Part shown: in pieces, positions 13,774 to 42,589 of the stretch
How the letters are laid out: the number at the start of each line of letters is the position of its first letter
Numbering within the stretch: the stretch's first letter is position 1
Source of the DNA: Branchiostoma lanceolatum
Taxonomy: Eukaryota
Reading direction: 5' to 3'
Assembly (NCBI RefSeq): GCF_035083965.1
Contig: NC_089722.1
Coordinates: 25,291,081-25,355,080, forward strand
DNA: 64,000 nucleotides
The notes under the pieces: generated by a model
What the model saw: only the letters and a program-made list of their open reading frames with translations
The model's database searches: none
Told to the model about the DNA's origin: nothing
Position numbers and translations under genes: made by a program

Positions 13774-16700
13774 TCTATTGGTTTTCTCGGTTCCTCCTCT
13801 CCATCTCTTGCCTGTACTTGCGCGTTGAGATGACGTACTCGATGTAGCTCATCATCCCGTCGTTATCTGTATCATCTTTCTCTAGAATCATGTCCACCAT
13901 ACCTATCGATAAGATGGAACAAGGTGATGCTAAATTGTAATCTAGATGTAGATCTGCTGTTCTACTATATTACGTGATTGTGAAGCTACGTCTTGTTGCG
14001 CATGGTCTTTTTCTACGTCGACATGGTTAGGCATCAGCAGTTTTGGAGAGAAAAAATACAGGATTTGACAACTGAAATTTACTACTATTCTTACTACTTT
14101 CAAGTGACATGTTTTCTTCACTCGGTAAAATTAGTATTTTTGACAAAGTGCCCTTCCCCTTCTATTATTACAAATATGTCTTCCCTGGTTTGCTCCTAGA
14201 AGAGGAATACATTCGTCTCCAACAGTGTATAATAGAATGCTACTGTTATCTTAGTGGAATACATAACATGGCCGGGTTACCTGTAAAATACTCCATCCTT
14301 TCATCATAGTCAGGAGGGTGGTTATATTCAGACCTATGCTCCATGGCGGCCATGATCTCCAGTCCGTCCAACTTCAGGTTTTTGTCGCTGTCTTGGGACC
14401 TGATGAGAGGACAAAGTTCAGACTTATGCTTAGTAAGCTTTTATAATTACACTAGCAATGTGTGTGACTACTCTGCACTTGCTTTTGTAAGGCTGTGAAC
14501 CGGTGATGGGTCTCATTTCCCAAACGGATGCTTTATTGCTAATATCATAATAATACACTAAACGATGTAGTTATTTGACTTATCTTTCAAACGGCGTCTG
14601 TATAGGAAACGTAATATCATCTAAAGTGTACCATTTCAGTCATGAATGATTAATAAGTGAATATTCAATGAATCATGGGTGATTGGACAAACTTGTAGAC
14701 AAGAAATATGCGCATCTCACAAATAACGAGTTATTCACATGTATCATGTCATCTAAAAACTACGATACAATTGAAAACTATGTGAATTTGCCTTTGTGGG
14801 CTAATGTAAAGTTGGCGGTCTAACAAGTCCTTTTTTCGGTTCGATAACAAGGCTGCACGGCGATGGGTCAAAACTAGAGTCGATGTCATTGCCATGACGG
14901 CGTTTGGATTTCGACCGCGATTTAGCTGTCGTTAACGACAACACTTACCTTACATCGCAACCGATCATAACACTGCAACCGACATCGCTATCTTTACATA
15001 TCGCAGCAATCGAGTCTTTACATCGCAATCGAGTCTTTACATCACATTCGAGTCGCTACATCGCAACCGAGGCCTTGACACCGCAATCGAGTTCTTAAAT
15101 CGCAACCGAGTTTTAAAACAGCAATCGAGTATTTAAAACAACAGTCGAGTTTTTAAAACAGCAACCGAACCTTAAAAAAGCGGTCGAGGATTAACTCCAC
15201 GGGAGCCTAATCACATGTAGCACCTCGTTCACTTCACACCTTCTTAACACCTAATGGTTATAGGCCACCGGAGGGCGCAAATAATCGACTAGTTAGGCAT
15301 ATGGCATTGGTCTCCGTTGGTTCAAGGAGGTTTAATCCTCCTTGGTTGATTGGAAACATTATGCTGATTTGTTTATATATTTTTCTCATGAGATCTAATC
15401 TCATGAACGCAAACTTGAGTCAAACCACTCAAGGGACTGAGGGAAATGATTGCTGAGGACAGGAGATTGCAGAGGACCAAGGAGAGGACGGGCTATGTAA
15501 AAATGGATGAACTGTTTGTTATGTCTTGTGACTGGAGGTGGTTCCCTGTGCCAGGTGGTTGCCCGACAAGGTTTGACTGTACTAAATTTCCTAAACTTTC
15601 ACAGATTAACACTGAAATTGTTATAATCATCTGCATCTGGCACGCCCATGGATGATTGGAATAATTTGTGGGGCGTCATCAGAAACAACACACATCCACA
15701 TCTCACCTGCATGTTCTTAAGGAGTAAACATAAAATCCAATAATGGATAACACTGCAAATATAGATTTTCCGCAATAGTTATGCAAATTAAGTCATATTT
15801 GCATAATTTACTTCATTATGTACATTTCTGTCTAAGCTACCTGCATACTAAATATCATGGAAATCGGTTAATCCTTTGTTCAGTTATCCTCCTTGGAAGA
15901 TTCTGACTGCAGTTCCAGAGCAAGCCGCTAGGGGGTCCAAAAGTACAGCACTTCTTCCTTACATCACAATCTGCCACCAAAAAATAAAGACCACAGCACG
16001 TTCAAGTCAAATGATTTAAAAAAAAGAAAGTTGTGATGCAGTACCAAGCTCACATACCAGGGGGACCAAAAATCAACATTGACCTTCGTATTCCCAACAC
16101 CGACCCACATATCAAATATCATTACAATCCATCTTGACTAATGCTGACTACAAACATCCGGAAGGAAAGGAAGAAGGAAGCACAAACATACTATACCAAA
16201 CATACTATAGCAATCAGCACAAAGAGAGCGACGTGAGAGCGCGCAGCGAGCGCAGTGAGCACCGTTAGGGCCCTGTCACACTTGTGCGTATATTCAAGTG
16301 CGTATGAGTTGCGCATCAACATTTCTTTGGTTTAAGTAAAGTTTGAGGGAAAGAAGTTGTTTTTCACTTTGACCTACCGTTGTGCAGCCTGCTTATCGAA
16401 CCAAAGACATGACGTCATCGGCTGCAAACTAAAAAAACCTAAACCAAAAATATGTTAATACGCAATTCCTGCGGACTTGTATGTACGCAGAAGTGTGACA
16501 GGGGCTTTAAGGGCCCTGTCACATTTGTGCGTATATCATGGCCGTGTCAGTTGCGTATCAACATTTTTTTCATACGCAGGCGTGCGCACAATACGCACCT
16601 AATGCGTATCTCAATCGTTTTGTGAAAGTTTTACGTACGCAGGCACACGCAAGGTACGGCCCAGTACGCCTGATATTTTTGAAACTACCGAAAACTTTCG

Positions 16701-19700
16701 TGCGAACGCTGTTACGCAGCTCAGACGTTATAAATACGCAGTGCATACGTCCGACATCGGTCGAGTGCGGTACGAGCGCGCTTTGTGTTCGCGCTTTATA
16801 CGCGGTAGTACGCTCTCTTGCGGCACGATCTCTGCGCAGCGTACACATAGCGTACTTGCAGCGCAGATACAACGCATGATGATCGAACGTATAGCGAATA
16901 ATAATATACGTCACGAATTAGTGCCGTTCGTCCTGCGATCGGGCAGCGCATTGTACGTATCAGTGGCGTATGACAAACGCAGAGATAACGAACGGATAGC
17001 GTACATATAGTACTCGACGAACATCCGGGGTACATTCCAGATTGGGTAAATTATTGGTCGGGTATTCAATTTAGTTTAAGGGCAGAGAGAAAACAAACAC
17101 AACCAGCAAAGTGTACATAACTTTTGATTTAAATAATTATTGAAATGCCCCGCGCACATGCATCCCTGTTACATACACATAAAAGTTCTACTTGTCGTTA
17201 CTTGTGGAGGCGTCTTCTAATAACAGTTTTCGTAACTACTGATATCGACGCAACCAAATTCACAGGGTAAATAATGGCTCTAAATGTCATGGAGTGTTCC
17301 AAAAGTAAAATTGGTTTCCCTGTTACACATATACAAACGGTCCTACTTGTCATCAGTTGTGGAGGCGTCTTCCCATAACAGTTTAAGTAAACACTAATAT
17401 CAATGCAACCAAATACGTTCATAATTCGATTAGCATCAGTGGGAAGTGCGTCAGGCATGCGGTCGGCAGACGTTGTGTACGTCCGGAATACGCTCAACAT
17501 ACACACCTGATACGCAGCTATTCGCTGCAAGGATAACAGTATTGCGCACTTCATATGCAAATCATACGTGTCTCATATGCTGAATTCGTTACTCATGCGC
17601 TATATGAGCGCCGCGCATAACTCAAGAAATTTGATATTTTGAGCGTACAACTGCGTATCGTCAAAATTTCATACGGAGCTCACGCGGAATTGCTTATACG
17701 CACAAGTGTGACAGGGATTTAGGCCTCAGCTTGAGCGCGACGATAGCGCCGACAAGTAGAATGGGGGCATTAAAGTCATACATAAGACCAGAGGAGAGTG
17801 TTCTGGTTCGGCTGATGGCATTTTTCTGAATCCAAGATCGTATATTTGTATTGGTATTTACCGCCCACCAAATACTGACATCAGCAGAGAACTCAATAAA
17901 TGTATGAAGGAATCCATGAGCACTATCAATAGCACCTCGTTACATTACCGGTGATTTTGATATTAATCCACTCAGCAACACAAACCAACATACCACCGAC
18001 CATGTTAACGATATGTTTTCATATGGCTTCTATCCACTTATATCTAATTCCACGAGAATAATACTCATTTTCACATATTAAAGAATAAAAAGACCGGTGG
18101 AATAAATCGCTTGGTTGTGTAAGAATAGTCTTTTTATTCATTAATATATGCAACTGAGTATTTGTAAGTTGAAAGAGCCAGTCATCCTCCATAGCCCAGA
18201 AACATGAAACTATTCCACAATTCCAAAACAGGTGGATGGCTGTCTCTTCTTCCGCTAGAGTTTTATAGGCCCCATGTGGATAGTGCTTTAGTAGTAACTG
18301 TTCCAAATGTGAAAAGCAGCTCATATTGAAAAATTCTAGTATGGAAAGTTCATAAGGTAAGCTGTAATGTTGTTTCCAAAGTAAAGTTGTATTGAAGCGT
18401 TCTTCCCAAGAATGTTGTATTTTGTTAGGATTCACACAGCTTTGCTTTTTTCATAAAAAGATTTACAAATATTTCTATACTTTTTTTTCTGAATTCCAAG
18501 TCCTGTCCCTAAGTCGGCGTACAAACCCATAAATCTGGGGATGCCTGCCTTAAAAACGATTTCCAATAGACTGAATTCGTAGAAATTAACTGGCTATATT
18601 GAAGTTCTGGACGGACATATACAAATTTTGAGGTGAAGTTCGCATAAGTAAGAAATCCATTTTCTGAATCCAAAATATCATTCAGAAATCAAACTCCTCC
18701 CGTATCAAAAGCTGTCAAAAATAATGGTCTTTTATTCTAAAATGTTTCTTATTTCAAAAGTTGAAATTTCTTCTCCTAAAACAAACAAGTATGGGGAAAG
18801 AAGGCAACCCCAGGTATGTCCGAAGACCGTGGATTGCAATTCATCAATAAAGCGATAAACTCCACGGCCATTCCGGGACGATTTAGAGATGACCCACTCA
18901 ACGGCAATACCGTCACTAATAGCGGCGATTCGCCGTGGAATTCATCTATTTAGTGATGAACTCCACGGACATTCCGAGACGATTTAGTGATGAACTCAAT
19001 GGCAATGCCGTCACTAATAGCGGCGATTCGCCGTGGAATTCATCGATTAAGCAATGAACTTCACGGCCATTCCGAGACGATTCAGTGATGAACTCAACGG
19101 CAATACCGTCACTAATAGCGGCGATTCGCCGTGGAATTCATCTATTCAGTGATGAACTCCACGGACATTCCGAGACGATTTAGTGATGAACTCAACGGCA
19201 ATGCCGTCACTAATAGCGGCGATTCGCCGTGGAATTCATCTATTTAGTGATAAACTCCACGGTCATTCCGAGACGATTTAGTGAGGAACTCAACGGCAAT
19301 GCCGTCACTAATAGCGGCGATTCGCCGTGGAATTCATCTATTTAGTGATGAACTCCACGGTCATTCCGAGACGATTTAGTGATGAACTCAACGGCAATGC
19401 CGTCACTAATAGCGGCGATTTGCTTGAGTGTGGCATCACTATGTATTGTCTTTTTTGATGTTGGAATAAGAAAAACGTGGAATTCATCGATTTAGTGAGG
19501 AACTCAACGACTATGCCGAGGCGATTCATAATTCATCGATTTAGTGATGAACTCCACGGCCATGCAGAGACAATTTAGAGATGAACTCAAAATTATGAAC
19601 CCCACGGTCGCAGGAATCGTAATGAGATATACGGCCGCGGGAATTACTCTTACCAATTTGATAGCGTCCGACTTTGGAACCACGGAGCACTGGCCGGCCA

Positions 19701-20477
19701 TGCCTCATATTTCCGGCGCGATTTCTATATTATGACAATTGGGAGGGTACGTTGCGAGTACGTCACCTTCGCTGAAAAAAACGCATTTCAACTGGTAGGT
19801 GGTTACATTTGGAGTTCGTTTGTTTGCTATGTGCATAATGTAACATTTTTTCGGGATCAAACTACATGAGCCATTTGCTTTGCCATTCCCCGAGGGCGTT
19901 CAGATCTCCTTGCAGAAGTTGTGAATCATTCGGGCTTGTGCGTCAGTGTGCCGGTTGAAATGGCGATTTTTGTTTTAGACTTTTAAAAAAAAACGCAAGT
20001 GGCAAAATGCCGCGAGCTCACCGCGAGCTTGCCGGGAGCTCACCACGCTGTTTGTTGTGTAAAAAGTGATATGTTAGTTTCAAATTTATACATATATTCG
20101 TATATTCTATAATATGTTACCTTTATTGCACCTAGTGTCATAAGTGAACATCCTTAATTATCGCCTCAAATCCATTTTTGATGCATTTCACTAATTGTAC
20201 ATTGTATTTTGATAAATTGACAACACTGCGATTTCCAATGAATTGAAATCACTATCATCATCAAACTACATTCGGTCCATCCCCCTAGCTATTGATCTGT
20301 TTGCCAGTTTGGTTAAACCTATCTTAGTGTATTGTAGTGAACTTACTGGAATAGATGCAGAGATCTAACTTTCAGTGGGATGACGCAATGTCCCAATGAA
20401 CACATCAGAACATCTAGATCTACAGCTACAATCCCCAACTTGATATCTAAATGTTGATGAACTCCATAGTTACGGCA

Positions 20478-20542
<65 letters not shown>

Positions 20543-23500
20543 CATCTATGTATCTATCTATCTATCTATCTATCTATCTGTCTATCTATCTATCTATTTT
20601 TTTCATTAATTTTTAAAAATAATATATCTATATAGAATAACAAAATTGAGAATCAGCACACATTGTGCTGTGGCTTCGCGGTTCCCGGATTTGTCTCGTT
20701 GACGTTGTGCCCCTGGGAGAGGCACATTACTGGACATTTTTCTCACTTCACTCATCAGGTGAAAACGAGTACCTAGCTTCGGTTAGGGACGTCACTCTGA
20801 TAGGACGTTAAATGGAGGTCCCATGTTTGAGGAGATCCTGACCTCCCGATGTAGACACCATTATAGACGTTATTTATCTTTTTAATCATTATATACGAAA
20901 TCAGGTCCGTCTTTTACATGATTAATGAGGAAAAGTTGAAATTCCCTTTCAATGTGCTATTTTTGGGATGACGACCAATATACGAGGACACATATGGACA
21001 GTGACAGGCTTTGGGTCAACATGTGGGCAGTGCTTTTCACAATGTCAATGGCGCTTTAAGGCATATGAACTGGGAACTGTGACATAGAGAGGAAAACCGA
21101 TTGATAAATCGATTATGTAAATACGGACATGATTTGTTTAATAAGTTTTGTACTTCAATCATGTACTTTTGACAAGTCTCCATGTTGTTCAGTTTTTCTG
21201 TGTCATATGGTTTTGTCATTACAGTTGTATTTGCGTATTAGTTATTTTGATATCGATACTAGGCAAAGTGTTCTGTACTGTCCCGCTAAACAGGCTGAGA
21301 AGTGCAACAGACAGAAAACTCAGGGAGGAACAGGCTGTTTTCCGACCCAACAGGTCCTGCAGTGATCAAATATTCACATTACGAAACATTATTGAACAGA
21401 GTCTTAAGTTCCAAAAACCAATATCCTTAAACTTTATTGACTTTAAAAAAGCATTCGATAGTATACACAGAGAATCAATACTGAGAATCAGTACTCAGAA
21501 TCAGTACTCAGAACATATGGTACACATAAAAGGTTCACAGACATCTTACGAGGGATCAAGTTGTTGTGTGAAGGTCGACTCAGCTATACTGACAGCTTTG
21601 ATATAGTCACTGCAGTAAGACGGGTGTGTTCTATCCCCTCTGTTGTTCATTATCACCATAGATTATGTTATGTGTAAAGCCATGGACAACCCAAACTTTG
21701 GCCTAGTCTGGAAAGGAAGTAGTCGTCTGACCGATCTTGACTTTGCAGACGACATTACCTTAACAGCCGAGTCCCATCAAATTCTCCAAGATATGACCAT
21801 CAACACAGAGACAAATTCAGCCAAAGTAGGTCTGAGAATTAGCGGCAACAAAACCAAAGCAATGCAGGTTGGAGAGCACCCCCCCCCCCCAAACACACAT
21901 CTTTCATACAAGTTAACACCATTCGGCGAAGCTATGGGATCGCTGAACTCTAGTTGTAGAATTGATTAGCCTTGCTCTAAATGATGTAATGATGATAATG
22001 TAATGACGATGATGTAATGATAATGATGATGTGCTTACTTGCTTACTTACTTATGTCGAGACCTTCCAGTCACGAGTCGAGATGGCAGCCCAAGTGTTTT
22101 GGTCCTTTATCGCCTGGAGCAAACTATCCACTTCAATGCCGGTGTCTTTCTTGAGAGTGTCTATAAAGGTTGCTGCGGGTCTTCCTGGCCTCCTTTTCTC
22201 ATGCTTGGGAATCCAGAGTACCAGGTCAGCTACTTCTTCCTTGCTCCTGAGGCAGTGTCCGTCGAACTTCAACCTCCTTGTCCTGATCTTATCGGTCAGC
22301 TTTGGTAGGCCAGCATACAAGTCTTTGTTGGTAATGTGTTGTGTCCAGTGGATGTTGAGCGTTGTTCTCAGAAGCCTCGTGTAACACCCATCCAACTGCT
22401 TTTCTAACTTGGAGGTAACTGTCCATGTAAAAGTAAATCAGTCATCCTCAATTGAGGTGAAGTGCAATGCTTTTTCAAGCAGCTAGTGGTAGTGCAATGC
22501 GGCTTCGCTGCGGCTCGCGTTTTTTGGCCAAGCACACCGGGTCACCCCTACTCTTCTCGATAAGTGTATTGGGTTCTTTTACGTGCAGAGGTTTGACGCT
22601 TGAGGCTTACTCCCGAAGCTCCCTCAGGAAGAGCCTCACTTTCAACTTGTGTGAGAGAGTTGATCTCCAAACCTTCTTCATCTTGTTACAAGCCTGCCAG
22701 GCTGCTGCTTTTCTTGCTGCCTTGTCCCTTGCTGTACTTTCCATTCTGGACTTTTACCTCCTCCAAGGCAGTACCATCGCTTGTCTTGAGGCAGTAAGGG
22801 GTTGGAATGTTAAAGGGCATAAACTTTGTTTTGCCAGCGTTCATGCAGAGACCAACCTTGCCCACTGAGCTCTCCACACACCCAAGCAGTTGCTGAGCTT
22901 GTTGAATTGCCTCTGATATTAACGCAATGTCATCAGCGAAATCCAAATCAGGAACTGTCTTCGGGCCAACTCTTCTGCTCCTCCTCCTTTCTATCTGTAG
23001 ACCTCCTCTCTACCGTCAATATCCGTCCTCAGTGCATAGTCTGTATCTGAATCTGTATCTATATAGCCGGTACCGCCATTAGGCGCAACACACCAGCTTC
23101 GCAGGCACGCGGCGCGACAGCAGCTGGTTATGTTATACCGAACGGTCTGTTACACCTAGTCTTTGCATATCTGACTGCAACCGTTCCTTAAAGCTACTTA
23201 GTGAAGATGCTCCTACAGTACTTGATGACAACGAGTTCCATTCTACTATGGTTCTCGGAAAATGCGAATTTTTGAACACATCAATCCTTGGCTGATAACT
23301 CTGGTACTTAAAAGCATGGCGATTTCTAGTCCTCTTCTGAGCTGGCATTAGATACTTATCAGTCTGTACGTCTACAGGTTTATTAGTCATTTTGTACATC
23401 ATGCAAAGTCTGGACGTTGTTCTTCTGTATTCAAGGGACATCCATTGCAGATCAACAACAATCACAAACAGCCTGATATGGAGCTAGTGTGTCCCTGTAG

Positions 23501-29500: not shown

Positions 29501-32500
29501 AGTAAAGGAATATTCTACTTAGCAGAAGAAATAATTCCAACTAACACAGGCAAGCATTGGTGGAGGGGTCCCTCAGTCCCTGGGCTTGGGGTAGGTACTA
29601 ACACAGGCAAGCATTGGTGGAGGGGTCCCTCAGTCCCTGGGCTTGGGGTTAAGGTACTAACACAGGCAAGCATTTGTGGGTGGAGGGGTCCCTCTGTCCC
29701 TGTGCTTGGGGTACTGGTACTAACACAGGCAAGCATTGGCGCTGATGCTTAAACTAACGGCACATATGACGGTGATATCACATGTATGGAATGTTTTCCT
29801 CATATTTTCCAGATGTCTCAAAGATTCAATATTTGCCAACCCATCTTGTTTTACTATAGATACAGAGAGGAGAGGCAGCCTGCAGCGCGGCCCTGCAGTT
29901 ATTGTCCAAATCCACCAGGCGGACATCATCTCCGGTGATGGGGATGGACGACTTGACACACCTGTGGTAGCAGCTGCAACAGTATGTAATGAAATTTGGG
30001 TGAAGGAGATAACTAACATTATACAAATGTATACATTTTGGAAATGAGGAGCTTTTCTGCATGATAACATGCTATTATTCCTTAGTGGAACATGATAGGA
30101 ATAGAAGCTAAAGAAATAAACAAAATTGTCTACCTTCCTACGTTACTAGACCAGAGGCTGGCCCCTTGCTTCTCTCTGTCTGGTTTCTACAAGTTACATG
30201 GTTCATAATAGTAAGCCATAGCGTCTGCAGCGGGTAAGCTTAATCCTGTGTCTTTTACAATCTGGTCTAGAAGTTTAGATTTGTCCTTTTCCTTACATTT
30301 ATCTAGCATTTACATTGCATTCTAGAGGAAAAGCAGTGGAGCCACTCCAAAAGAAGAGACTGCTAGCTTCCCTATCAACAGAAGGGATACCAACATGGGA
30401 AATTCTCAAATGCAGCAACTCAGCATTTTCCTGACACAAGACTGGGCCAAAGAACTTGGCATTCCTTAAGTTAAGTGACACTTTTCCCTCAATGAACCCC
30501 TTTCTCAGGACTTTTTATCATTTGTAATTAACATAAAACTACTGTAATTTTTGTTTCTTTCACTGTTACTTTATGTTCACTGTTATTATTGTCACCTCTG
30601 TATTGTGAACTTATAATCATTATGGAAAACCTGTTGTGATTATTTATTATTCCTTCACACGTCCGTTCTGTGAAGTTAAAGTTCAGTGAAAATGTCCATT
30701 TTCCTTACACCCTGAAATTTTGCTACCGTGAAGATAAAGTGAATTACAGTAACTGCACTCTTACCATACTGAGCACTTCCAATTCACTGCACTCAAGCCA
30801 TTCTAAGCACCTGTAAGTCCCTACACTCCAGCAGTCTAAGCACATGTAAATCACATCAGCCACTCTAAGCACCTGTAAGTCACTCCAGCCATTGTAAGCA
30901 CCTGTAAGTCAGTCCAACCATTGTAAGCACCTGTAAGTCGATACAGCCACTCTAAGCACATGTAAGTCCCTCAGCCACTCTAAGCACTTGTACGTCACTG
31001 CAATCCAGTCACTTTAAGCACCAGTATCATTAATCTTTAGGGTGGTCCCTTCAGTTACTATGTAACTGATTTCCAAGGGAGCCCGTCCGGGTGAATGGTG
31101 TTAATAAACGTATGGCTGATACGAGACGGGGTTTCGCCAGGCTTCCATCTGGGTGATTTGTAGTGAATCACCAACTCCAGACAGAAGGATTTGGACCATC
31201 GCACACCAGGGCATGCCCCTACTCGTTTTACACCTGTCACTGCACTCCAGCCACTCTAAGCACCTGTAAGTCACTCCAGCCATTCTAAGCACCTGTAAGT
31301 CACTCCAGCCATTCTAAGCACCTGTAAGTCGCTCCAATCACTCTAAGCACCTGTAAGCCACACCAGTCACTCTAAGCACCTGTAAGTCACTCTAGCCATT
31401 CTAAGCACCTGTAAGTCGCTCCAATCACTCTAAGCACCTGTAAGCCACACCAGTCACTCTAAGCACCTGTAAGTCACTCTAGCCATTCCAAGCACTTGTA
31501 CCTCAATGTGCTCAGCCATTCTAAGCACCTCTGACTGCACCCAGGCCAATCTTAGCACCTCTTACTCACTTGTATCATCCTATGTAGTCTGGCCATTCTA
31601 ATCACTTTAGCTATTCAAACTCACTACACTCTGGCTGTTCTGATTACTTGGGTGTTTGGATGCATGATCGAATAAATGATTTGTTAGCCCCTGAGCAGAC
31701 GTAGGTGTTTGTATGCATGTTATGACAAATGATCTTTCCTCCAAGCAAACACAGGTGTTTGGCTTCTATTATTCTGATGAATGATGTTTTTACTCTGAGG
31801 AGTTACGGGTTTTTGGTTTCTAATGTTCTATTAGATAATTTTTCCCATCTTACCAGACACAGGTATTTAGTTTCTATTGTTCTTCTGATGAACAATATTT
31901 TTTTTCCTCCAAGCAGAAACATATGTTTGGCTACATGTAATGATGATATTGATTTTTTTATCCTCCAAGCAGATACGTTGGCTAATCTATTATTCTGATG
32001 AATGATATTTTCCCTCTCAGCAGACACAGGTATTATTCTGATGAATGAGTTTTTTTTCTCTTAGCAGACACAGGTGTTTGGCAGCATGTAATGATAAATA
32101 ATTTTATTCCTCCAAGCAGATACAGGCATTTGGCCTCTATTATTCTAATGAATCATTTATTTGCTTTCTGCTCCCGTGTGAAATCATGTGCACTTGCGCC
32201 AAATTGTGCTCTCGCAAGAGCAGATTCAAAATGGTGCCATAGTTTGGAAAGGAGTCTATCATATCAGTGCCAGATGTGAGGAAAAATGACAGAATATTTT
32301 TCAGACCTGGGCAGAACTGAGACTGGCCATGAGAAGATGGGATTTTCGTTGTCATACTTAAAGTACAACAAATGTAATGAAAGGAGATTACTAACATATG
32401 TATACATTTTGGAAATGAAGAGCTTGTCTGCATGATAACATGCTATTATTCCTTAGTGGAACATGATAGGAATAGAAACTAAAGAAATAAACAAAATTGT

Positions 32501-35500
32501 CTACCTTCCTACCATGCTTCCTACGTAACTAGACCAGAGGCTGACCCCTTGCTTCTCTCTGTCTGGTTTCTACAAGTTACATGGTTCATAATAGTAAGCC
32601 ATAGCGTCTGCAGCGGGTAAGCTTAATCCTGTGTCTTTTACAATCTGGTCTAGAAGTTTAGATTTGTCCTTTTCCTTACATTTATCTAGCATTTACATTG
32701 AATTCTAGAGGAAAAGCAGTGGAGCCACTCCAAGAGAAGAGACTGCTAGCTTCCCTATCAACAGAAGGGATACCAACATGGGAAATTCTCAAATGCAGCA
32801 ACTCAGCATTTTCCTGACACAAGACTGGGCCCAAGAACTTGGCATTCCTTAAGTTAAGTGACACTTTTCCCTCAATGAACCCCTTTCACAGGATTTACTG
32901 AAAACTGTTTATCATTTGTGATTTACTTCAAACTACTGTAATTCTTGTTTCTTTCACCGTAACTCTATGTTCCCTGTTATCACTGTCATCTCTGTATTGT
33001 GAACTTATCATCATCATGGAAAATCTGTTGTGATTATTGAAAATTTCTTCACACATCCGTTCTGTGAAGTTAAAGTTCAGTGAAAATGTCCATTTTCTTT
33101 ACAACGCCACTCCAGCAACTCTAAGCATCTATAAGTCACTTCACTCCAGCCTTTCAAAGCACCTGCAGCTGTAAGCCACTCCAGCCACTCTAAGCACCTG
33201 TAAGGCACTCCACTCCAGCCACTCTAAGCACCTGTCACTCCAGCCATTCTTAGAACATGTAAGTCACTGCACTAGCCACTCTAAGCACCTGTAAGCCACA
33301 CCAGTCACTCTAAGCACCTGTCACTCAAGTCATTCTAAGCACCTGTAAGTCATTCCAGCCACTCTAAGCACCTGTAAGTCACTCTAGCCATTCCAAGCAC
33401 TTGTACCTCAATGTGCTCAGCCATTCTAAGCACCTCTGACTGCACCCTGGCCAATCTTAGCACCTCTTACTCACTTGTATCATCCTATGTAGTCTGGCCA
33501 TTCTGATCACTTTTAGCTATTCAAACTCACTACACTCTGGCTGTTCTGATTACTTGGGTGTTTGGATGCATGATTGAATAAATGATTTGTTACCCCCTGA
33601 GCAGACGTAGGTGTTTGACTGCATTTTCTGACGAATAATATTTCCTCTGAGCAGACACAGGTATTTGGCTTCTATTATTCTGATGAATGATTTTTACTCT
33701 GAGCAGGTACATGTTTTTTTGTTTCTAATGTAGTAATTAATGATTTTTTCCTGTCTTAGCAGACACATACAGGTATTTAGTTTTTTATGTTCTGATGAAT
33801 GATTTTTTTCCTCCAAGGAAACATACATGTATGTTTGGCTGCATGTAATAATAATATCGATTTTTTTTATCCTCCAAGCAGATACTGGTATTTGGCTAAT
33901 CTATTTTTATTTTATTTTCCTCTGAGCAGACCTGGGTATTTGGCTGCATGTAATGATAAATCATTTTATTCCTCCAAGCAGATACAGGTATTTGGCTTCT
34001 ATTAATCTGATGAATGATTTTATTACTTTGAGCACACACAGGTATTTGCTTTCTGTTCTATTGATGAATGATTTTTTTCTCTGAGCAGACACATGTTTGG
34101 CTGCATGTAATGATACATTATTTTATTCCTCCAAGTAGATACAGGTATTTGGCTTCTATTATTCTGAAGAATGATTTTTTTATTTGAACGGACACAGGTA
34201 TTTGCTTTCTGTTCTACTGATGAATGATTTCATTCCTCCAAGCAAATACTAGTACAGGCTTCTATTATTCTGATGAATGATTTTTTCCTCTGAGCAGACA
34301 CAGATGTTTGGCTGCATATAATGATAAATGATTTTTTCCCTCCATGCAGATACAGGTATTTGTCTAATCTATTGTTCTTAGACTCATAAATTATTATTTT
34401 TTTCTTAGCAGACACAGGTATTTGGCTTCTATTATTCTGATGATGACTTTTTCCCTCTCATCAGACACAGGTGTTTGGCTTCTATTTTTCTGATGAATGA
34501 TTTTTTCCTCTTAGCAGACACAGGTGTTTGGCTTCTATTTTTCTGATGAATCATTTTTTCCTCTTAGCAGACACAGGTGTTTGGCTTCTATTATTCTGAT
34601 GAATCATTTTTTTCCTCTTAGCAGACACAGGTGTTTGGCTTCTATTATTCTGATGACTCATTTTTTCCCTCTCATCAGACAAAGGTGTTTGGCTTCTATT
34701 ATTCTGATGAATGATTTTTTCCTCTTAGCAGACACAGGTGTTTGGCTTCTATTATTCTGATGAATCATTTTTTTTCCTCTCACCAGATACAGGTATTTGG
34801 CTTCTATTATTCTGATGATGATATTTTTCCCTCTCAGCAGACACAGGTGTTTAGCTTCTATTATTCTGATGAATGTTTTTTTTTTCCTCTTAGCAGACAC
34901 AGGTGTTTGCCTTCTATTATTCTGATGAATGATTTTTTTCCTCTCAGCAGATACATGTGTTTGGCTTCTATTATTGTGATGAATGATTTTTTCCTCTTAG
35001 CAGACACAGGTGTTTGGCTTCTACTATTCTGATGAATCATTTTTTTCCTCTCAGCAGATACAGGTGTTTGGCTTCTATTATTCTGATGATGATATTTTTC
35101 CCTCTCAGCAGACACAGGTGTTTGGCTTCTATTATTCTGATGAATGTTTTTTTTTTCCTCTTAGCAGACACAGGTGTTTGCCTTCTATTATTCTGATGAA
35201 TGATTTTTTTCCTCTCAGCAGATACAGGTATTTGGCTTCTATTATTGTGATGAATGATTTTTTCCTCTTAGCAGACACAGGTGTTTGGCTTCTACTATTC
35301 TGATGAATCATTTTTTTTTCTCTCAGCAGATACAGGTGTTTGGCTTCTATTATTCTGATGAATGACTTTTTCCCTCTCAGCAGACACAGGTGTTTGGCTT
35401 CTATTATTCTGATGAATGATTTTTTTCCCTCTCAGCAGATACATGTGTTTGGCTTCTATTATTCTGATAAAATGATTTTTTTCCTCTTAGCAGATACAGG

Positions 35501-38500
35501 TGTTTGGCTTCTATTATTCTGATGAATGATTCTTTCCCTCTTAGCAGACATGGGTATTTTATTTCTGTTCTACTGATGAATGATTTTTTTCCTCTGAGCA
35601 GACACACCCTCACACACGTGTTTGGCTGCATGTGCTGATAAAGGATTTTTTTTCCTATAGCAGACACATGTGTTTGGCTTCTATTATTCTTTTGAATGTT
35701 TTTTTTCCTCTGAGCAGTAACCGGTTTTTGGTTTATATTGTCCTAATTAATGATTTCCCCCCCCCCTCCAAGAATACACGGGTATTTGGCTTCTATTGTT
35801 TTGATGAATGGTTTTTCCCATCTCAGCAGGTACAAGCGAATTGCACATTCTAATGAATAACTTTCTGTCAACTGTGCAGATTCTCTGGTTCTTTTGCTAA
35901 TGAACATTTTTTTTTGCCAGCCAAACGACATAAGGGGACAGTGACACAAGGATAGATGGTTGGTGTACACCCTTTCTCATCGGACATTAAGGTCTCATTC
36001 CTGTATTACTCCGAGTGGGTACCCTAAAAGAATATGTACCCCAAAATATTAACGACTGCATGAACGTGTGTTTAGATTGGTGGGAAAATTCCCTTTTAGC
36101 CACCCCAACTGATCTCAAGCATCAAACTGATAAAAGCTTGTTTGTAACTGAAGAAATTAGCAGGTAAAGTTTGGCAGCCATGCGCGATGTCGGACGTCCA
36201 CAGCCAGGCATTGTCGGGGATGCGGTCGTGCGCTTTCAGCTGGAAAGTGCCTTTTGGGGGGTGTACTAGTAGCTAAGTGCAGTGTGTAATTGCTATAAAA
36301 AGAGATTGTATGTAGTGAAACTGTTGCCAATTTTATTACATGATGTAGGGTACATGTGCTCAACATAGAATGAATGACCTTGGTGCATTTTCTATAGCTT
36401 CATTACGAACGCGCCCATATGTAAAACATGTTTTATAGCTATGGGGCGAAAAAACTCATGAATGAGACCTTGATAATGTGTTCATGTGTCTTTGAACAGG
36501 GTGAACCACCAACAAGGAGAGCGTTCATCGTTGTCAGGCTTGGAGAGGATATTGACAGCATCAGGTAATACTGCTGAAGGCATGGTTTGTATTTAGAAGC
36601 ACACCATCCACGCAAGACTTACCAGTTTGTTCAGATCAATGGGTTAATGCACCTTTCGTAAAGCATGTTCCACAATTGTTTGGGAGTACAGTACAGTATT
36701 GAATGTGAACTTGATAGATTGACAACTGAACGAAGAATACATGTGTACATGTGTATAATTCTGTATTATTGTTGAATTTCTTGTGTGTAGGACATGTGAA
36801 GAAGAAGAGGAGCCATGGCAGAGACAGCAGCTCAGATGTCAGCAGTCTGTCCAGTGTAGGTAACTTACTAACCAGTGTTCTCGCCAGGCCTTTTCAGCAT
36901 AGGGGCCCCCTATGCTGTGATTTGGACCCCCTATGCTGTGATCTGGACCCCTATGCTGTGTTTCAACCAGCATAGGGGTGTTTCTTTCTGGGACAAACCT
37001 TGTGACCCTTCATAAATCTTATAAAAAGTTCATATTTGGCTTTAGAATGAGGCTGTGACAGAGGAAAAAACTCTACTTCACAAAATTTATCCCTCAAAAT
37101 GCTTGTAATAATGTCTCATTGGGTCATGAATTTACAAATTTTCCGGGGGAACATGCCAGACTCCCTACTCTGGTCATGTCTTCAGCACTCCACGCATGAC
37201 TTGCACCGCTAAAGTTGGCCTTCTGTACCTGACCCCTATGCTGTGAAAAAATTCTGGTGAGAACACTGCTAACAGTAAATCTTCAAATTCCTGCAGTTGG
37301 CAAAATCATGACCCTGCGAATAATTGTGTTTTGTAATTGCAGTCTGCAGACCTATTTGAGCTTTTCATGAATAAATAAAGGTTCAAACTAACAAATAAAC
37401 TGAAAAATTGTTTGAGCCACGAACTACGAGCACTGCGGAAAGCTCCTTTACCCTCAAATCCCCTCAAAAATGAAATGAATTGTATATTTATAGTTTTGCC
37501 TGGTAGCCATCCTGGTGTACCTGTGCTGTACCGGTACTAAATCAGGTCAAGCCTGAGGATTACAGATCAGTGGAAGGCAACTTTGACAGATAGAATCACC
37601 ATGAATTACCGTGGCAGTGTACTGCAGTGTACTGTACTGTAGCACAGATTGAGCTTTAAATGTGCCTGAGTCAAATTTTCATCTTTATTTCAATACTGGA
37701 GTCATAGCTGACTATTGGTGAGGGTGATGGTCATTATAGATGCCATGTAATAGGCCCGTGTCTAGCAGAATTAAACATTATGTTGTTATCGGTTGTTTTT
37801 GTCCTTTAATCAACCATTACTTGAACATTTAATTTAGTAGTTCAGGGCCAGACCTGTACCTAAACCTGTGTACCTGTACCTAGAATTTGTTTAGGTACAC
37901 AGCTCTAACCAGGTGTTACATGTTATATCGTGAACAACCTTGGACAAACTTCAACTTGGCGACTTGACTTGAATTAAAAATTACATTTTCAATGTGTTTC
38001 TGGATACTTGTTTGTCAAATTATAGCCTTAGTAAATGTTTTTTCCACTTGCTTTGGGTCAAAATTAGACTTTCATCTTAGTCAAACATCCCATTGATACC
38101 CATACTTTTAAAGACTTGAAAAAAGGGCCCTTCCAAAAATGCGCTCTTAGGATATCTAGTCTGATGTTGAAAATAATGTTTATAGTGTTTGTGTGAATAT
38201 TTATTCATCAATTTCCACCCTTTAACAACTTAAGTCTTCTATTGCCTTGGCCCAAAAACTGACCTGGAACTTCAGCAATTATCCCATAAGAACCAGTACT
38301 TAAGGGATGATTCCCATCATACATCACACCCCATGGGTCTGCATGAAGGGGCACTACTCAATTCCTGGATTATAAATGGTTCATTTATTTGTTCATCTGT
38401 AAATAATTTTTACCAACTTGGTTGATTTTGTATTTATAAAGATGTGGTCTATTACAAATCACACCTGCTTCTGTTTTTTTCTGGGGTTGCCTATATGCAT

Positions 38501-41500
38501 GTATACATGCATCTGTCTGTACTGTATCTATAGCTGATGCCCAGCATGTACCTGCGAAGCTGGTGTGTTACGCTTACGAGTGGTTATACTGACTGTACAG
38601 ATACAGATACGGAACTGAGTAGTATCTTGATCAACATGCAAATTAAGATTTCTGATTCTAGATTCATAAGAAATTAATCCTTTTTTAAAGCACATTCATT
38701 TATGTATTTTACGCTTGTGTTTGCAGTGTCAGTGGTATGAAGGACCTAAGCTGAGGGATTTCCTGTTGGGATGTGAGCCTGAGAAGACTACTCTTCAAGC
38801 AGAGGTTGTAAGGGAGATCATGACTTAACTCAAGACTACTCTCCAAGTAGAGGTTGGAGGGGGGGAAATGCTATATTCTCCTGTTTACAGGTTCCAATCA
38901 CAAGAAGGTATAATCAGGCCTTTAGTTGAAAACCAAAGGAGACCAACTGCAGATTGAAAGTCTATCAACTACCAATCTAATCCAGATTTTTGAAGGAGTT
39001 GAGAAGAGTGCTGCCAGTAATGTAGTTACACTTTTAGCATGACACAAATGTGAAGCTTGAAGTCTAAATTTAATGAGATAAGATTAAGCGACAGATCTGT
39101 ATTTTATGTGGAAGATTCTAATGGAACACATAATTCACTACAAGCTGATAGTTTTGTTTATTAATCCAATCACAAGATCATTTTCCAGTGTCTGATGTTC
39201 ATATGACACACCAATTCCTCTAATCTGTGCCCATCAAGGCTTTAAAATGAATGGGTTCAGAAGCTTTATGACAGGATTTGCCAAACATTCAGAAAAATTA
39301 TAAATCAATCACTGCTGAACATTGGTGCACAAACACAAAGACATGTACTACAGAAATATAGAAAAGGCTCAAAAGTACCTCATAAAGCAATCTCTGGCAC
39401 AACTCTCACGTACTCTATCATCAAAGTGTTTGTATATTAGGACACAACAATTTGTTGTTTTTTCCTTCAAAAATTTGCTCACTCCATTGCTTTTCAATTG
39501 CATATTGTCCTTGTCTTCCTAGTTTCTACAGTTTCCCAAAATGTGTTGTCCATAGAAATGATATATTTGATGTGGTCGTAAATGGGTCTATCAAACTTTG
39601 ATTTATGGATTTTTGATTTTGACGCACCAGATTTTATTTGTACCCATTGTATGTTGTCCGCTTCCGTTCTACTGCCAAGCTGTAACACGTATTGTGATTA
39701 TTGCCTGTGCATATATTATACTGGGCCCCAATGGAAATCAGGTATCCTAGCTGTTTGGGCTACCCAGGAGTCTCAAGATGAAATAAATAAATAAATAAAT
39801 AAATAAACTGTTTTCTTATTTTGTCTTACCAGTTTCTCCCAGTTGTATGTCCGTTTAACTTTGTTTTCCTAAATAGTCTAAGAACAAAGAAATTAAATCA
39901 GTAAGACTGCAATCAGTTTTGTATAGTTATGGTTAATGCGTGGAAACAAGTGATGCGTTGTTTATCCCTACAGAGGTTATGAAATATACAGTATGTATGT
40001 GTATGTATGTGCTTCAAAGATTTGTATGTCATCTGACGTGCTTTGTATTTATTGAAGGGTCTATTTCTGATTGAATGAGTCTCTTGCTGCATTTCCTTGA
40101 TTCTCACTTTAGTAACTAGATACGGGCAAACATACATCAAAGCTTGGGATAGACAACGGTTAGTCGTTTTAAGTTGTATAAATACAAATGCCCTTCCCCC
40201 TCTCGGCCCGATAGGTTGATATTCAAGGTGACCTAAGTCAGGTCTAGTAGACACGACACGTCCAGTGTATCATTGGTATCAATACACATCTCTGTATGTA
40301 GGTGTGAAAGAGGTCCCCGTTGAGTTAATCCTCTACGCAGTTTAAGATAAGGAGTTAATCCTCGCAGGTTAAAAGCCCGACGCAGTGTAAAGCCCCAACG
40401 AAGTTTCAGTTCCGACGCAGGTTAAGTTCCGACGTACGTATTTTAAGAGTTCATCCATGTTTATATAGTTAACCCCATCCTGTCCCCTCCTAACTTAAGT
40501 CCTTTGAGTGGTTGCGGAATCCAGGTTTGACTCTACTTTGCGTTCGTAAATTATAACATTAAAAAAGGCTAATGTGTCCAATTAACGGAGATGTGCCTAA
40601 CTATAGTCGATTATTTGCGCCCTCCGGTGGCCTATAACCATTAGGTGTTAAGAAGGTGTGAAGTGAACGAGGTGCTACATGTAATTAGGCTCCCGTGGAG
40701 TTAATCCTCGACCGTTTTTTTAAGGTTCGGTTGCTGTTTTAAAAACTCGACTGTTGTTTTAAATACTCGACTGCTGTTTTAAAACTCGATTGCGATTTAA
40801 GAACTCGATTGCGGTGTCAAGGCCTCGGTTGCGATGTAGCGACTCGAATGTGATGTAAGGACTCGATTGCGATGTAAAGACTCGATTGCTGCGATATGTA
40901 AAGATAGCGATGTCGGTTGCAGTGTTATGATCGGTTGCGATGTAAGGTAAGTGTTGTCGTTAACGACAGCTAAATCGCGGTCGAAATCCAAACGCCGTCA
41001 TGGCAATGACATCGACTCTAGTTTTGACGCATCGCCGTGCAGCCTTGTTATCGAACCGAAAAAAGGACTTGTTAGACCGCCAACTTTACATTAGCCAATT
41101 TGTGTACAAATCTTTCAAGAAGAGAACAGAGACTCTGTAGATTTAGATGGAATTATTCATTTTATTTTACTTCATGTTACCTAATGCATTTAGCCCATGT
41201 TGGGCATGAATATGCAATAAAGCTCATTGTCATTGTCATTGTATAAACCACTTTAGACGACTCACTTGAAGAAGTGCCACTCCAGTTCCTCCGGTGACAT
41301 CTGACTGATTTGTTCCTCTGTCAGCTCCTGGACGTGCTCCTTCAGGTGACTGGTGGAAAACGTTAAGATGAACTTTGAAGTCATTATACACAATTAAACA
41401 GGCAATGTTCGTTTTCACGATTTCATTCTCTCTAAATATCAATGTTGAATCAACTTGAGTAGATAACAGACCAAGCTGCTGTTGTTCACACGCTATGCAC

Positions 41501-41885
41501 GGGCCATAGTCTGTAGACCATATCCCTAAAGGACACTGTATTAGGGCAAACCGCATTGGCCCCAACCCTGCTTTCTGAAATTCTCAACACCAAATCTAAC
41601 CTGCCTGATGTGTCGAAAAACTGTTTCGCGTATGTATGCATCTATCCTTAGTTACCAAGTCGCAGTTATTATCCCCAGGCTGCCCTACCTTAGCATTTCA
41701 TTTCATTTCATTTTATTTATTGTCCCATATGTTATACATATTCACACACGTACCCTCTATCCTGAACCATGGATGGCTCCCGGAACCTGTTGGTGTCCCC
41801 CTCCGCTGTAGACCCCACTGTCGGTACCAGTAGGAGGTAAGTACCGAGGGCAGCTAATAGAGCGAGCGGTGAACGGGACTGGGGC
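13774..41885 (-). CDS. MCFD2-like copy C, apparently one gene split by a roughly 26.9-kb intron 2 (exons 1-2 at 41.3-41.9 kb, exons 3-4 at 13.8-14.4 kb)
   Basis: Exon 1 is about 41885-41760 ([46 protein letters not shown], donor GTACGT). Exon 2 is about 41350-41268 ([28 protein letters not shown], donor GTGAGT). No exon 3/4 lies between 41268 and 14400. The next compatible exons are 14394-14283 ([39 protein letters not shown], acceptor CATCAG) and 13903-13774 ([41 protein letters not shown]). Order, strand and phases are compatible. The alternative is two truncated pseudogene halves. Confidence 0.45.
14860..15330. repeat. Left arm of a long inverted repeat (partner at 40560-41040) with internal ~20-bp degenerate tandem subrepeats
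   Basis: 14881-15330 is the reverse complement of 40560-41010 at high identity. The ORF pair 14904-15098 (+) and 40797-40991 (-) encodes the same peptide. The internal subrepeat is atcgcaaccgagttttaaaaca. Confidence 0.8.
15700..16200. repeat. Dispersed repeat. A related copy lies in an intron of the titin-like gene (57850-58030)
   Basis: 16040-16200 (cagtaccaagctcacataccagggggaccaaaaatcaacattgaccttcgtattcccaacaccgacccacatatcaaatatcat...tccggaagg) is about 75% identical to 57880-58020. Confidence 0.55.
16266..16510. mobile_element. MITE (about 245 bp) with roughly 22-bp TIRs GGCCCTGTCACAYTTGTGCGTAT
   Basis: Left end is gggccctgtcacacttgtgcgtata. Right end is tacgcagaagtgtgacagggg, its reverse complement. 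Confidence 0.65.
16511..17716. mobile_element. Non-autonomous TIR element of about 1.2 kb sharing the same TIRs as the adjacent MITE
   Basis: Left end is ggccctgtcacatttgtgcgtata (16511). Right end is tatacgcacaagtgtgacaggg (17694-17716). The interior is full of tacgc/gcgta-rich low-complexity sequence, and its ORFs (16538-17035) are Arg-rich with no recognisable transposase. Confidence 0.6.
18019..18435 (-). mobile_element. Non-LTR retrotransposon ORF2 fragment with a zf-RVT-like (reverse-transcriptase zinc-binding) domain
   Basis: The 138-aa ORF contains [18 protein letters not shown], the C..C..ET..HLF..C.....W pattern of the zf-RVT domain. Confidence 0.55.
18860..19560. repeat. Tandem repeat with a unit of about 98-100 bp, about 7 copies
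   Basis: The unit ccacggNcattccgagacgatttagtgatgaactcaacggcaatgccgtcactaatagcggcgattcgccgtggaattcatctatttagtgatgaact recurs at about 18863, 18964, 19063, 19162, 19259 and 19357. Confidence 0.85.
19980..20450. repeat. Left long TIR-like block (modules C, A-rc, B) of a roughly 5-kb inverted-repeat-bounded structure
   Basis: 19981-20050 is the reverse complement of 24850-24940. 20090-20320 is the reverse complement of 24480-24700. 20340-20450 is a direct copy of 24390-24480. Confidence 0.6.
20477..20596. repeat. (ATCT)n microsatellite, about 30 units
   Basis: ctatctatctatc... with a few point substitutions. Confidence 0.95.
21148..21969 (+). mobile_element. Non-LTR (LINE) retrotransposon reverse-transcriptase fragment, frameshifted
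   Basis: The two ORFs read [53 protein letters not shown] and [35 protein letters not shown]. They carry LINE RT motifs (FRPNRSC.DQIF, the FADD/YADD box) but lie in different frames. Confidence 0.8.
22051..22946 (-). mobile_element. LINE ORF2 fragment (RT palm/thumb plus C-terminal domain) in inverse orientation to the neighbouring fragment
   Basis: ORFs on the - strand read [33 protein letters not shown] and [54 protein letters not shown], which is a typical RTE/L2-type ORF2 tail. Confidence 0.75.
23133..23465 (-). mobile_element. Fragment of a retrotransposon ORF2 C-terminus
   Basis: The motif ..[18 protein letters not shown].. is the conserved C-terminal motif seen in many invertebrate LINE ORF2 proteins. 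Confidence 0.5.
24390..24940. repeat. Right long TIR-like block (modules B, A, C-rc), partner of 19980-20450
   Basis: See the partner block. The enclosed 20450-24390 holds the (ATCT)n tract and the three LINE fragments. Confidence 0.6.
25255..26075. mobile_element. MITE-like element of about 820 bp with 27-bp perfect TIRs
   Basis: Left end is aagccccggttacacatagccgaacat (25253-). Right end is atgttcggctatgtgtaaccggggctt (26049-26075). Internal agccgaac(a/t) motifs are repeated. Confidence 0.7.
27190..27530. repeat. Foldback element with two nested perfect hairpins
   Basis: Inner arms are 27296-27375 (ctagcctctaccaggctccgcggatcgctaggaaaatagtagaaatcggcaaatagagtgaaaagtatgccaaggg) and 27420-27505, its reverse complement. 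Outer arms are cgactattggagggcttttttt (27225-) and aaaaaaagccctccaacagtcg (27275-), with ggcgccatga at both ends. Confidence 0.7.
29515..29740. repeat. Tandem repeat with a unit of about 60 bp, about 4 copies (ggtactaacacaggcaagcattggtggaggggtccctcagtccctgggcttgggg)
   Basis: Read directly from the sequence. Confidence 0.8.
29980..30720. repeat. Copy 1 of a roughly 740-bp low-copy segment (copy 2 at 32380-33100). Each copy is followed by the 40-bp then the 54-bp satellite, so together they form a higher-order duplication of about 2.4 kb
   Basis: 30040-30480 matches 32420-32870 nearly base for base (gaaatgaggagcttttctgcatgataacatgctattattccttagtggaacatgataggaatag...). Confidence 0.8.
30770..31030. 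repeat. Minisatellite with a unit of about 40 bp (cactccagccattctaagcacctgtaagt)
   Basis: Direct tandem copies. Further arrays lie at 31240-31500 and 33090-33420. Confidence 0.8.
31240..31500. repeat. Minisatellite of about 40 bp, second array
   Basis: It uses the same unit as 30770-31030. Confidence 0.8.
31660..32200. repeat. Satellite array with a unit of about 54 bp (ttagcagacacaggtgtttggcttctattattctgatgaatgattttttcctc), first block
   Basis: Tandem, degenerate copies read directly from the sequence. Confidence 0.8.
33090..33420. repeat. Minisatellite of about 40 bp, third array (part of the duplicated 2.4-kb block)
   Basis: It uses the same unit as 30770-31030. Confidence 0.8.
33580..35880. 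repeat. Satellite array with a unit of about 53-55 bp (about 40 copies, most homogeneous at 34380-35560), second block
   Basis: The start of ttagcagacacagg recurs at 34511, 34564, 34618 and onward. The overlapping 'ORFs' at 34524-35667 are repeat artefacts. Confidence 0.9.
40260..41040. repeat. Right arm of the long inverted repeat (partner 14860-15330) plus an extended degenerate subrepeat zone
   Basis: See the partner arm. 40300-40450 holds further degenerate copies of the ~20-bp unit (gttaaaagcccgacgcag...). Confidence 0.8.
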
Positions 41886-42589
41886 ACGGCCATGATGAAC
41901 ATATACACACATGCTCGTGTGAGTGTCTGTTTGAATTACATATTTGTGTTTAATCTTTGACACCCCATGATGACGTGTTGTATATACGGTAAGTGTAATA
42001 ATTCTCATATCAACAACAACATAAACAAGGTTATCAAGATTTTTATTGCGTTTTGTAAGATAGTCTCATCCGGATGCCAAGTGGACATAGTATCTTAAGC
42101 GGTTTTATTAGTTCCTCTATGTTAGATACTAGTATATAGCCACTTCAGTTCATAAACGTACACACACCCACAAAACGATTACTATGGCAACAGCATGATA
42201 AGTTTTCAATGCAACTGTTATATAGATAAGAGGGAATATCATTCCATTATATTACACACAGCTAAGCTTATGATCAAACGACAAATCCTCTAGAAAAGGA
42301 TTCTTCAAGATCAGCGCTATCAAAGGGGAGCGCTTCACCTTAAAATTACCTTGTTATTTTCGTTCAGATGATTGGCCCCTCGATGATTTCCTTTTCAACT
42401 TTCAAAGCGGTTCGGAAAGTATAATTACACTGTTTCTTCCTTTAAAGTTGTACCTAAAAGTTGAGACTTTGACATTTCTTTACAGGTGCTTTTAGATACA
42501 TGTGTGGCTATAAACAGCTGTACGTGCCATATATATCTTATTCCATTAATTTTCAAGTTTTCTTCATCTTGCTAATTGCACTTGTATAT

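Follow-up and report, generated by a model that had tools for sequence, protein, structure and literature searches.

A 26.9-kb second intron in an MCFD2-homologue gene of Branchiostoma lanceolatum, probably enlarged by an inverted-repeat-bounded insertion

One gene interrupted by a long second intron

The stretch of DNA analysed here (the window) comprises 64,000 nucleotides of gap-free eukaryotic sequence (no N) from the lancelet Branchiostoma lanceolatum (GCF_035083965.1, contig NC_089722.1, forward-strand positions 25,291,081 to 25,355,080), and it carries a tandem array of genes related to MCFD2 (multiple coagulation factor deficiency protein 2). Within this array, two exon pairs found at 41.3-41.9 kb and 13.8-14.4 kb are one gene locus, referred to below as the split gene, with 26,866 bp of intron between them. 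The reading that we favour, to which we give a probability of roughly 0.8, is that this is a single gene descended from a compact ancestor, that its intron 2 was enlarged by an insertion bounded by inverted repeats, and that its product still depends on the removal of the 26.9-kb intron.

All four exons are located on the minus strand. Exon 1 (41754..41893) extends from the ATG to the donor GG/GTACGT, ends in phase 2 and encodes a signal-peptide-like N-terminus, while exon 2 (41266..41349), with the donor AA/GTGAGT, likewise ends in phase 2. Exon 3 (14281..14399) is preceded by the acceptor TCATCAG/G, ends in phase 1 and encodes EF-hand loop 1, and the coding part of exon 4, stop codon included (13775..13902), encodes EF-hand loop 2. 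The splice sites of the three introns (GG/GTACGT...CCAG/T, AA/GTGAGT...TCAG/G and CAG/GTAACC...ATAG/G, in phases 2, 2 and 1) are all GT-AG, those of intron 2 (14400..41265, minus strand) among them, and the four joined exons amount to 471 nt, or 156 codons without an internal stop, the conceptual exon 2-exon 3 junction joining ...GAGTGGCACTTCTTCAA to GTCCCAAGACAGCGAC. The split gene was also searched for disabling lesions (stop, frameshift or lost splice site), and none was found. The exon positions, common strand and compatible phases proposed in an earlier sequence-only reading of this DNA thus agree with the splice sites and with the 156-codon frame. That reading had also stated that no other MCFD2-type exon is present in the intervening stretch, which was borne out by a permissive tblastn search (word size 2, E <=10, with the spliced protein and human MCFD2): no credible MCFD2-type exon was detected in 14437-41265, where the sole matches had E values of 6.7 and 9. 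All of the other MCFD2-type exons of the window were recovered by the same search. A hidden exon 3 or 4 near 41 kb, or exon 1 or 2 near 14-15 kb, was considered as well, and tblastn revealed none.

An exact-sequence look-up identified the spliced product, residue for residue, as XP_066297925.1, 'multiple coagulation factor deficiency protein 2 homolog [Branchiostoma lanceolatum]'. Therefore, the public annotation already joins both halves across the long intron, and the gene model is already known. This protein is located on a 44,478,171-bp record that also carries XP_066297934.1 and XP_066298061.1, both of them encoded in the window. Together with the compact four-exon orthologues described in the next topic, this identity supports the one-gene interpretation that had been put forward from the letters of the sequence.

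A protein homology search of a large collection returned Branchiostoma proteins alone, with no transcript-derived proteins among the results. Among solved structures, on the other hand, all four matches were human MCFD2 (best E = 3.9e-14, residues 40-140), and the NCBI label of the exact protein and of its relatives is 'MCFD2 homolog'. The closest characterised relative is human MCFD2 (PDB 2VRG, 3A4U, 3LCP and 3WHT), the EF-hand partner of the cargo receptor LMAN1, and the closest characterised relatives being MCFD2 proteins, the product of the split gene is, as judged from its sequence, an MCFD2 homologue. Two 12-residue EF-hand loops in its C-terminal half are intact and align with both loops of 2VRG, and the Pfam EF-hand_7 profile matches residues 69-138 with E = 3e-4, at 21.5 bits and hence below the gathering cut-off of 30. 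A hydrophobic, signal-like stretch is also visible at the N-terminus. The product would therefore resemble human MCFD2 in being a small protein of the secretory pathway with an N-terminal hydrophobic signal-like segment and a C-terminal pair of EF-hands, but the two systems differ in copy number, since amphioxus has a tandem array of 5-7 paralogues whereas vertebrates have a single MCFD2 gene. Nothing specific was found in the literature on amphioxus MCFD2 or on structural variants of B. lanceolatum.

Comparison with orthologous loci

In BraLan3, another assembly of the same species, the orthologue (CAH1232362.1; OV696686.1, L001 10001-11475) shows 96% protein identity to the split gene and spans 1,475 bp. 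It occupies the same array position and has the same four exons and collinear flanks at 89-92% DNA identity, but its intron 2 measures 250 bp instead of 26,866 bp, and the 6.4-kb tandem duplication that neighbours the split gene in the window is absent. Exon 1 shows 97.8% protein identity to L001 10001-10138, and exon 2 shows 100% protein identity across all four orthologous loci. Collinearity holds upstream between L001 6462-10650 and window 45350-41239 and downstream between L001 10865-15111 and window 14410-10167, with ~215 bp of L001 in the place of 26.8 kb of window sequence. The DNA that the window has in excess of BraLan3 extends from 14698 to 41238 (26,541 bp).

A short intron 2 is likewise found in a B. 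floridae-hybrid (246 bp) and in two B. belcheri assemblies (299 and 352 bp), where the compact orthologues span 1,892 bp and 2,125 and 2,337 bp, respectively, and in each of these orthologues the same four exons make up a single gene. Because full-length four-exon orthologues exist as compact genes, the two halves in the window are one locus. Additionally, since intron 2 measures 246-352 bp in the four orthologous loci, parsimony makes the long intron 2 the derived state, acquired on the lineage of the window haplotype. This comparison had been suggested as a check by the sequence-only reading, and it was found that the block is missing from BraLan3 and from the outgroups, which implies that a large insertion made the gap. 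The alternative raised there, namely two pseudogene halves created by a large insertion, was accordingly right about the insertion, but the halves carry no marks of pseudogenes.

Boundaries of the inserted block

On the donor side, the 5' remnant of the ancestral intron (41239..41265, minus strand), which aligns to BraLan3 (GTGAGT..GTGGTTTATACAA), is separated by 142 bp (41097..41238) from a right-hand element of 530 bp (40567..41096, minus strand) that resembles a miniature inverted-repeat transposable element (MITE). On the acceptor side, a left MITE-like element of ~566 bp (14799..15364, plus strand), inverted with respect to the right one and with a degenerate, indel-bearing inner end, is separated by 101 bp (14698..14798) from the 3' part of the ancestral intron (14400..14697, minus strand), which can be aligned weakly with the orthologous introns and terminates with a polypyrimidine tract and the acceptor. 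Neither spacer has a counterpart in BraLan3 or in the outgroups, nor was a homologue of them found in the paralogue introns or in the other loci compared.

Both elements carry 9-bp terminal inverted repeats (GGCTAATGT...ACATTAGCC) and internal 19/38-bp subrepeats. The outer 493 nt of each constitute the arms of an inverted repeat, 14799-15291 and 40604-41096, which match at 487 of 493 positions (98.8%; 6 mismatches) and enclose a block, 14799-41096, that makes up 26,298 bp of the 26,866-bp intron. At both outer junctions it is the same element terminus, GGCTAATGT, that adjoins the flank; the inner ends differ by indels, and further inward the similarity is weak and patchy, over ~170 bp. The donor is separated from the nearer arm by 169 nt and the acceptor by 399 nt, and the four exons and all splice sites were left untouched by the insertion. 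The repeat inventory given by the sequence-only reading, in which a long interspersed nuclear element (LINE), MITEs, satellite and a foldback were correctly listed, had missed this bracketing 493-nt inverted repeat.

Origin of the block

Under the reading that we favour, the ancestral gene would have been compact (1.5-2.3 kb, with an intron 2 of 250-350 bp), and ~26.3-26.5 kb of non-coding, repeat-rich DNA would have entered its intron 2 on the lineage of the window haplotype. The simplest mechanism would be that the inverted pair, two copies of a non-autonomous MITE-like element, was moved or copied together with the 25 kb between its members, as in transposition of the composite or foldback type. 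Between the arms and the ends of the haplotype-specific DNA there are 101 bp and 142 bp, and by our own estimate the chance that two independent insertions would be so placed in 26.5 kb is ~1e-4. Since independent insertions at both ends are this improbable, the arms are tied to the event that delivered the block. Moreover, near-identical arms with the same terminus facing outward point to one event that moved the pair together with its interior, and we infer that the block probably arrived in a single step by transposition.

Composite transposons and their relatives are known from the bacterial Tn5/Tn10-type composites, the Drosophila FB-flanked 'TE' elements and the macrotransposition of maize Ac/Ds. 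The block resembles such elements in that a short element with internal tandem subrepeats stands, in inverted copies, on either side of its passenger DNA, that terminal inverted repeats are found at the ends of the unit, and that a haplotype either has the whole of it or lacks it. On the other hand, it differs from them in that no transposase was found and no second copy of the element or of the block is known, in its ambiguous target-site duplication and in the 101-142 bp lying outside the arms, and its assignment to this class is tentative. A giant autonomous DNA transposon (Polinton/Maverick-like or ProtoRAG-like) was also considered and was rejected. Of 10 batches of stop-to-stop open reading frames (>=60 aa) from the interior, 8 were scanned with Pfam, covering the interior apart from the satellite block at 31-36 kb, and decayed reverse transcriptase alone was detected, with no domain of a cellular gene or of a transposase. 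The element termini GGCTAATGT are, in addition, unlike the CAC-type ends of Transib/ProtoRAG.

Giant introns filled with satellites are known, for example, in the Y-linked fertility genes of Drosophila, which the split gene resembles in having a small coding sequence cut by an intron of satellite and transposon debris. In this case, however, the intron is ~100x smaller, and the long state is a polymorphism within the species instead of being fixed.

Functional state of the allele

Between the split gene and its BraLan3 allele, synonymous divergence (dS) is 0.138 and non-synonymous divergence (dN) is 0.019, giving a dN/dS of 0.14, or 0.04 for exons 1-2 and 0.24 for exons 3-4, so that both halves of the gene appear to be constrained. 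When the changes were polarised with two outgroups, 4 non-synonymous and 3 synonymous substitutions were assigned to the window lineage and 3 and 5, respectively, to the BraLan3 lineage, a difference that is not meaningful. Neither lesions nor relaxed constraint, by which a pseudogene would be recognised, were found, in a comparison whose power is low with an apparently young insertion. The codons that distinguish the window haplotype from the other allele are 39 (GAG/GAT), 76 (CAA/CAC) and 121 (AAA/GAA).

Introns of tens of kb are routinely spliced in animals, and the block is presumably still spliced out in vivo; we lean towards normal splicing across the 26.9-kb intron and regard an effectively null allele as unlikely. 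If the arms paired in the pre-mRNA, they would form a ~490-bp duplex with a cofold energy of -961 kcal/mol. It is conceivable, although we hold it to be quite improbable, that a composite or foldback unit of 26.3 kb landed in one step in an intron of 0.3-0.6 kb and that the duplex of its arms loops out the passenger and so rescues splicing. If this were true, the duplex would bring the splice sites to within ~570 nt of each other, and the locus would represent a natural, segregating case in which an intron expanded 100-fold in one step and was rescued by the inverted repeats that had come with the expansion.

Observations against the favoured reading and rival explanations

Several observations weigh against a single insertion into a gene that continues to work. 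The flanks of the block, CCTTTGTG and AATTTGTG, have 6 of 8 bases in common and lie in a TTTG-rich context, which makes a target-site duplication ambiguous; a matching dinucleotide is found on either side of each MITE taken singly (TT/TT and CA/CA); and TACAA is found on both sides of the whole extra DNA relative to BraLan3. The outer stretches of 142 bp and 101 bp (243 bp) are also missing from BraLan3, and therefore more than one event may be involved. Furthermore, no transposase was found in the scanned interior reading frames, and the window and four other loci contain no other copies of the arm element. With respect to function, the substitution H76Q (codon 76 CAA, 14394-14396), directly before EF-hand loop 1, is specific to the window; human MCFD2 and all the other amphioxus copies listed have a histidine at this residue. 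The divergence of the arms, 1.2%, is roughly one tenth of the allelic dS of 0.138, and the insertion therefore looks young, unless the arms were homogenised by gene conversion. Since a young insertion fewer than ~3 neutral coding substitutions are expected, and thus the intact frame fits both a working and a freshly disabled allele. Finally, the RefSeq model could have been derived from protein homology alone.

The youth of the insertion bears directly on the possibility that it killed the allele, in which case transcription or splicing across 26.9 kb would fail, hindered by satellites, LINE fragments and a potential 490-bp double-stranded RNA stem, and the two exon pairs would be the halves of a very young pseudogene, a loss tolerated through the adjacent paralogues and the intact other haplotype. 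With arms at 1.2% and alleles at a dS of 0.138, the intact frame is uninformative on this point, and the redundancy is high (5 to 7 paralogues in the array). The count of 4 non-synonymous to 3 synonymous changes on the window lineage, H76Q among them, against 3 to 5 on that of BraLan3 goes in the expected direction, but it is far from significant. In two other lancelet species, dispensable genes were reported to be lowly expressed or silent (PMC12373286). Nevertheless, the split gene has no stop, frameshift or splice-site lesion and RefSeq carries it as a normal protein-coding model, and a killed allele is, in our judgement, an explanation to be kept in view but one that is probably wrong. It is somewhat less probable still that the intron was lengthened in situ by numerous separate insertions and by the expansion of satellites, the inverted MITEs being independent recent insertions of an active family. 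The terminal inverted repeats and matching flanking dinucleotide of each MITE copy would be explained in this way, as would the patchwork of the interior, where nested inverted repeats occur together with decayed LINEs and with arrays of differing identity; the alleles are old enough (dS 0.138) to leave time for it, and intron 2 of two other copies in the array, A and A', similarly gained 1.3 kb relative to BraLan3. However, MITE copies 101-142 bp from both ends, with the same end outward, are improbable for independent insertions, and no intermediate state was seen in the one other haplotype compared.

An assembly artefact, in which a repeat-rich segment from elsewhere was mis-threaded into the intron through the MITE copies, is unlikely, and we would place it far below any of the preceding explanations. 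It would draw on the near-identical 0.5-kb repeats at both junctions, on the suspicious 100%-identical 6,388-bp tandem duplication directly upstream and on the lack of the block in BraLan3. Yet the window contains no gap, and both unique flanks join the same element terminus, which a single MITE together with mis-traversal of the assembly graph cannot yield. In addition, the arms differ at 6 positions and at their inner ends and are therefore distinct copies, not one collapsed repeat.

Context in a polymorphic genome

Lancelets rank among the most heterozygous animals measured (PMC9673378), and between individuals of two other lancelet species 10-16% of the reference genome was found to be dispensable (PMC12373286); haplotype-specific repeat blocks such as this one are therefore to be expected. 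The same array also differs between the two assemblies by 1.3 kb in another intron and by a 6.4-kb perfect tandem duplication. The structure is thus an ordinary intronic structural variant, neatly bounded, in a very polymorphic genome, and neither a new kind of gene nor a new mechanism is indicated. What the locus illustrates is that one and the same gene occupies 1.5 kb or 28 kb depending on the reference assembly; here the span of a gene and the length of its introns are therefore properties of haplotypes and not of species, which calls for caution in annotation and pangenome work on highly polymorphic genomes. The block is also a candidate for studying how large passenger segments move in lancelet genomes and whether a sudden 100-fold intron expansion alters expression.

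At the split gene, the synonymous divergence of 0.138 between the window and L001 is more than one third as large as the distance that separates them from the B. floridae-hybrid orthologue (0.33-0.37). Either the two B. lanceolatum haplotypes are unusually deep or the array underwent exchange between paralogues.

Content of the block

The interior of the block is made up of arrays and transposon remnants. A 98-bp tandem array was detected by repeat search at 18835-19590. A decayed LINE reverse-transcriptase fragment with in-frame stops (21145-21966, plus strand, antisense to the gene; Pfam RVT_1 E = 1.2e-17) is abutted, in the opposite orientation, by a second decayed fragment of reverse transcriptase and tail (22054-23009, minus strand, sense; Pfam RVT_1 E = 2.4e-4, below the gathering score), which has many stops and frameshifts. 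Both are set inside an older, diverged inverted repeat that pairs ~19969-20833 with 24469-26195. Further along, a 203-bp foldback MITE is found at 27306-27508. The nested LINE fragments, MITEs and foldback that had been described in this intron were thus all recovered (21145-23009, the arm elements and 27306-27508, respectively).

The tandem repeats called for some revision of the earlier description. A 57-bp-unit minisatellite occupies 29540-29739 and a 29/58-bp minisatellite 30748-31570, with a second block at 33106-33475; these are the arrays that had been reported as '60-bp' minisatellites, real as arrays but with units of 29/58 bp and 57 bp. The '40-bp' minisatellites likewise exist, as the 19/38-bp subrepeats inside the two MITE-like arms. 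The 54-bp satellite is present too, with a main block of ~2.3 kb (33552-35834) and a smaller one (31646-32171), its extent being ~2.8 kb and not the ~4 kb first given. Part of this region was segmentally duplicated, with 81-85% identity between 30003-30999 and 32381-33383 and between 31236-32162 and 33135-34078. No Rfam family above its gathering score and no tRNA was found in the window.

The ~200-bp foldback MITE belongs to a dispersed family, which also occurs in the BraLan3 and B. belcheri loci (27306-27508 in the window; L001 4983-5061; L003 9726-9877 and 2439-2514; 81-92% identity). A further dispersed repeat of ~220 bp (75-77% identity; 15949-16164 and 57792-58016 in the window, L001 387-575) is located inside the block as well as beside the Ig/fn3 gene that flanks the array.

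The surrounding array

All MCFD2 copies of the window are on the minus strand, in the transcription order A, B, A', B', split gene, C, D. Copies A (54304-51418), A' (47915-45029), C (13199-11280) and D (10422-7316) were delimited by tblastn; copy B (50449-49456) lacks exon 4, and copy B' (44060-42620) corresponds to XP_066297934.1. Intron 2 measures 176 bp in C, 300 bp in D, 316 bp in B and B' and 1,701 bp in A and A', a measured range of 176-1,701 bp that matches the 0.1-1.7 kb previously estimated for the other copies. In A and A', ~1.3 kb of this intron (45732-47049, and 52121-53438 in the duplicate) has no counterpart in the BraLan3 orthologue (L001 6164-6170), and therefore insertion differences have arisen at intron 2 more than once in this gene family.

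A tandem duplication of 6,388 bp with 100.0% identity (42767-49154 and 49156-55543) lies inside the array. It begins 16 bp upstream of exon 4 of copy B' and yields the second A and the B that lacks exon 4, from which XP_066298061.1 (123 aa) is composed of exons 1-3 and a read-through tail (49455-49423). BraLan3 has a single copy of the segment, and the duplication is either very recent or a duplication of the assembly.

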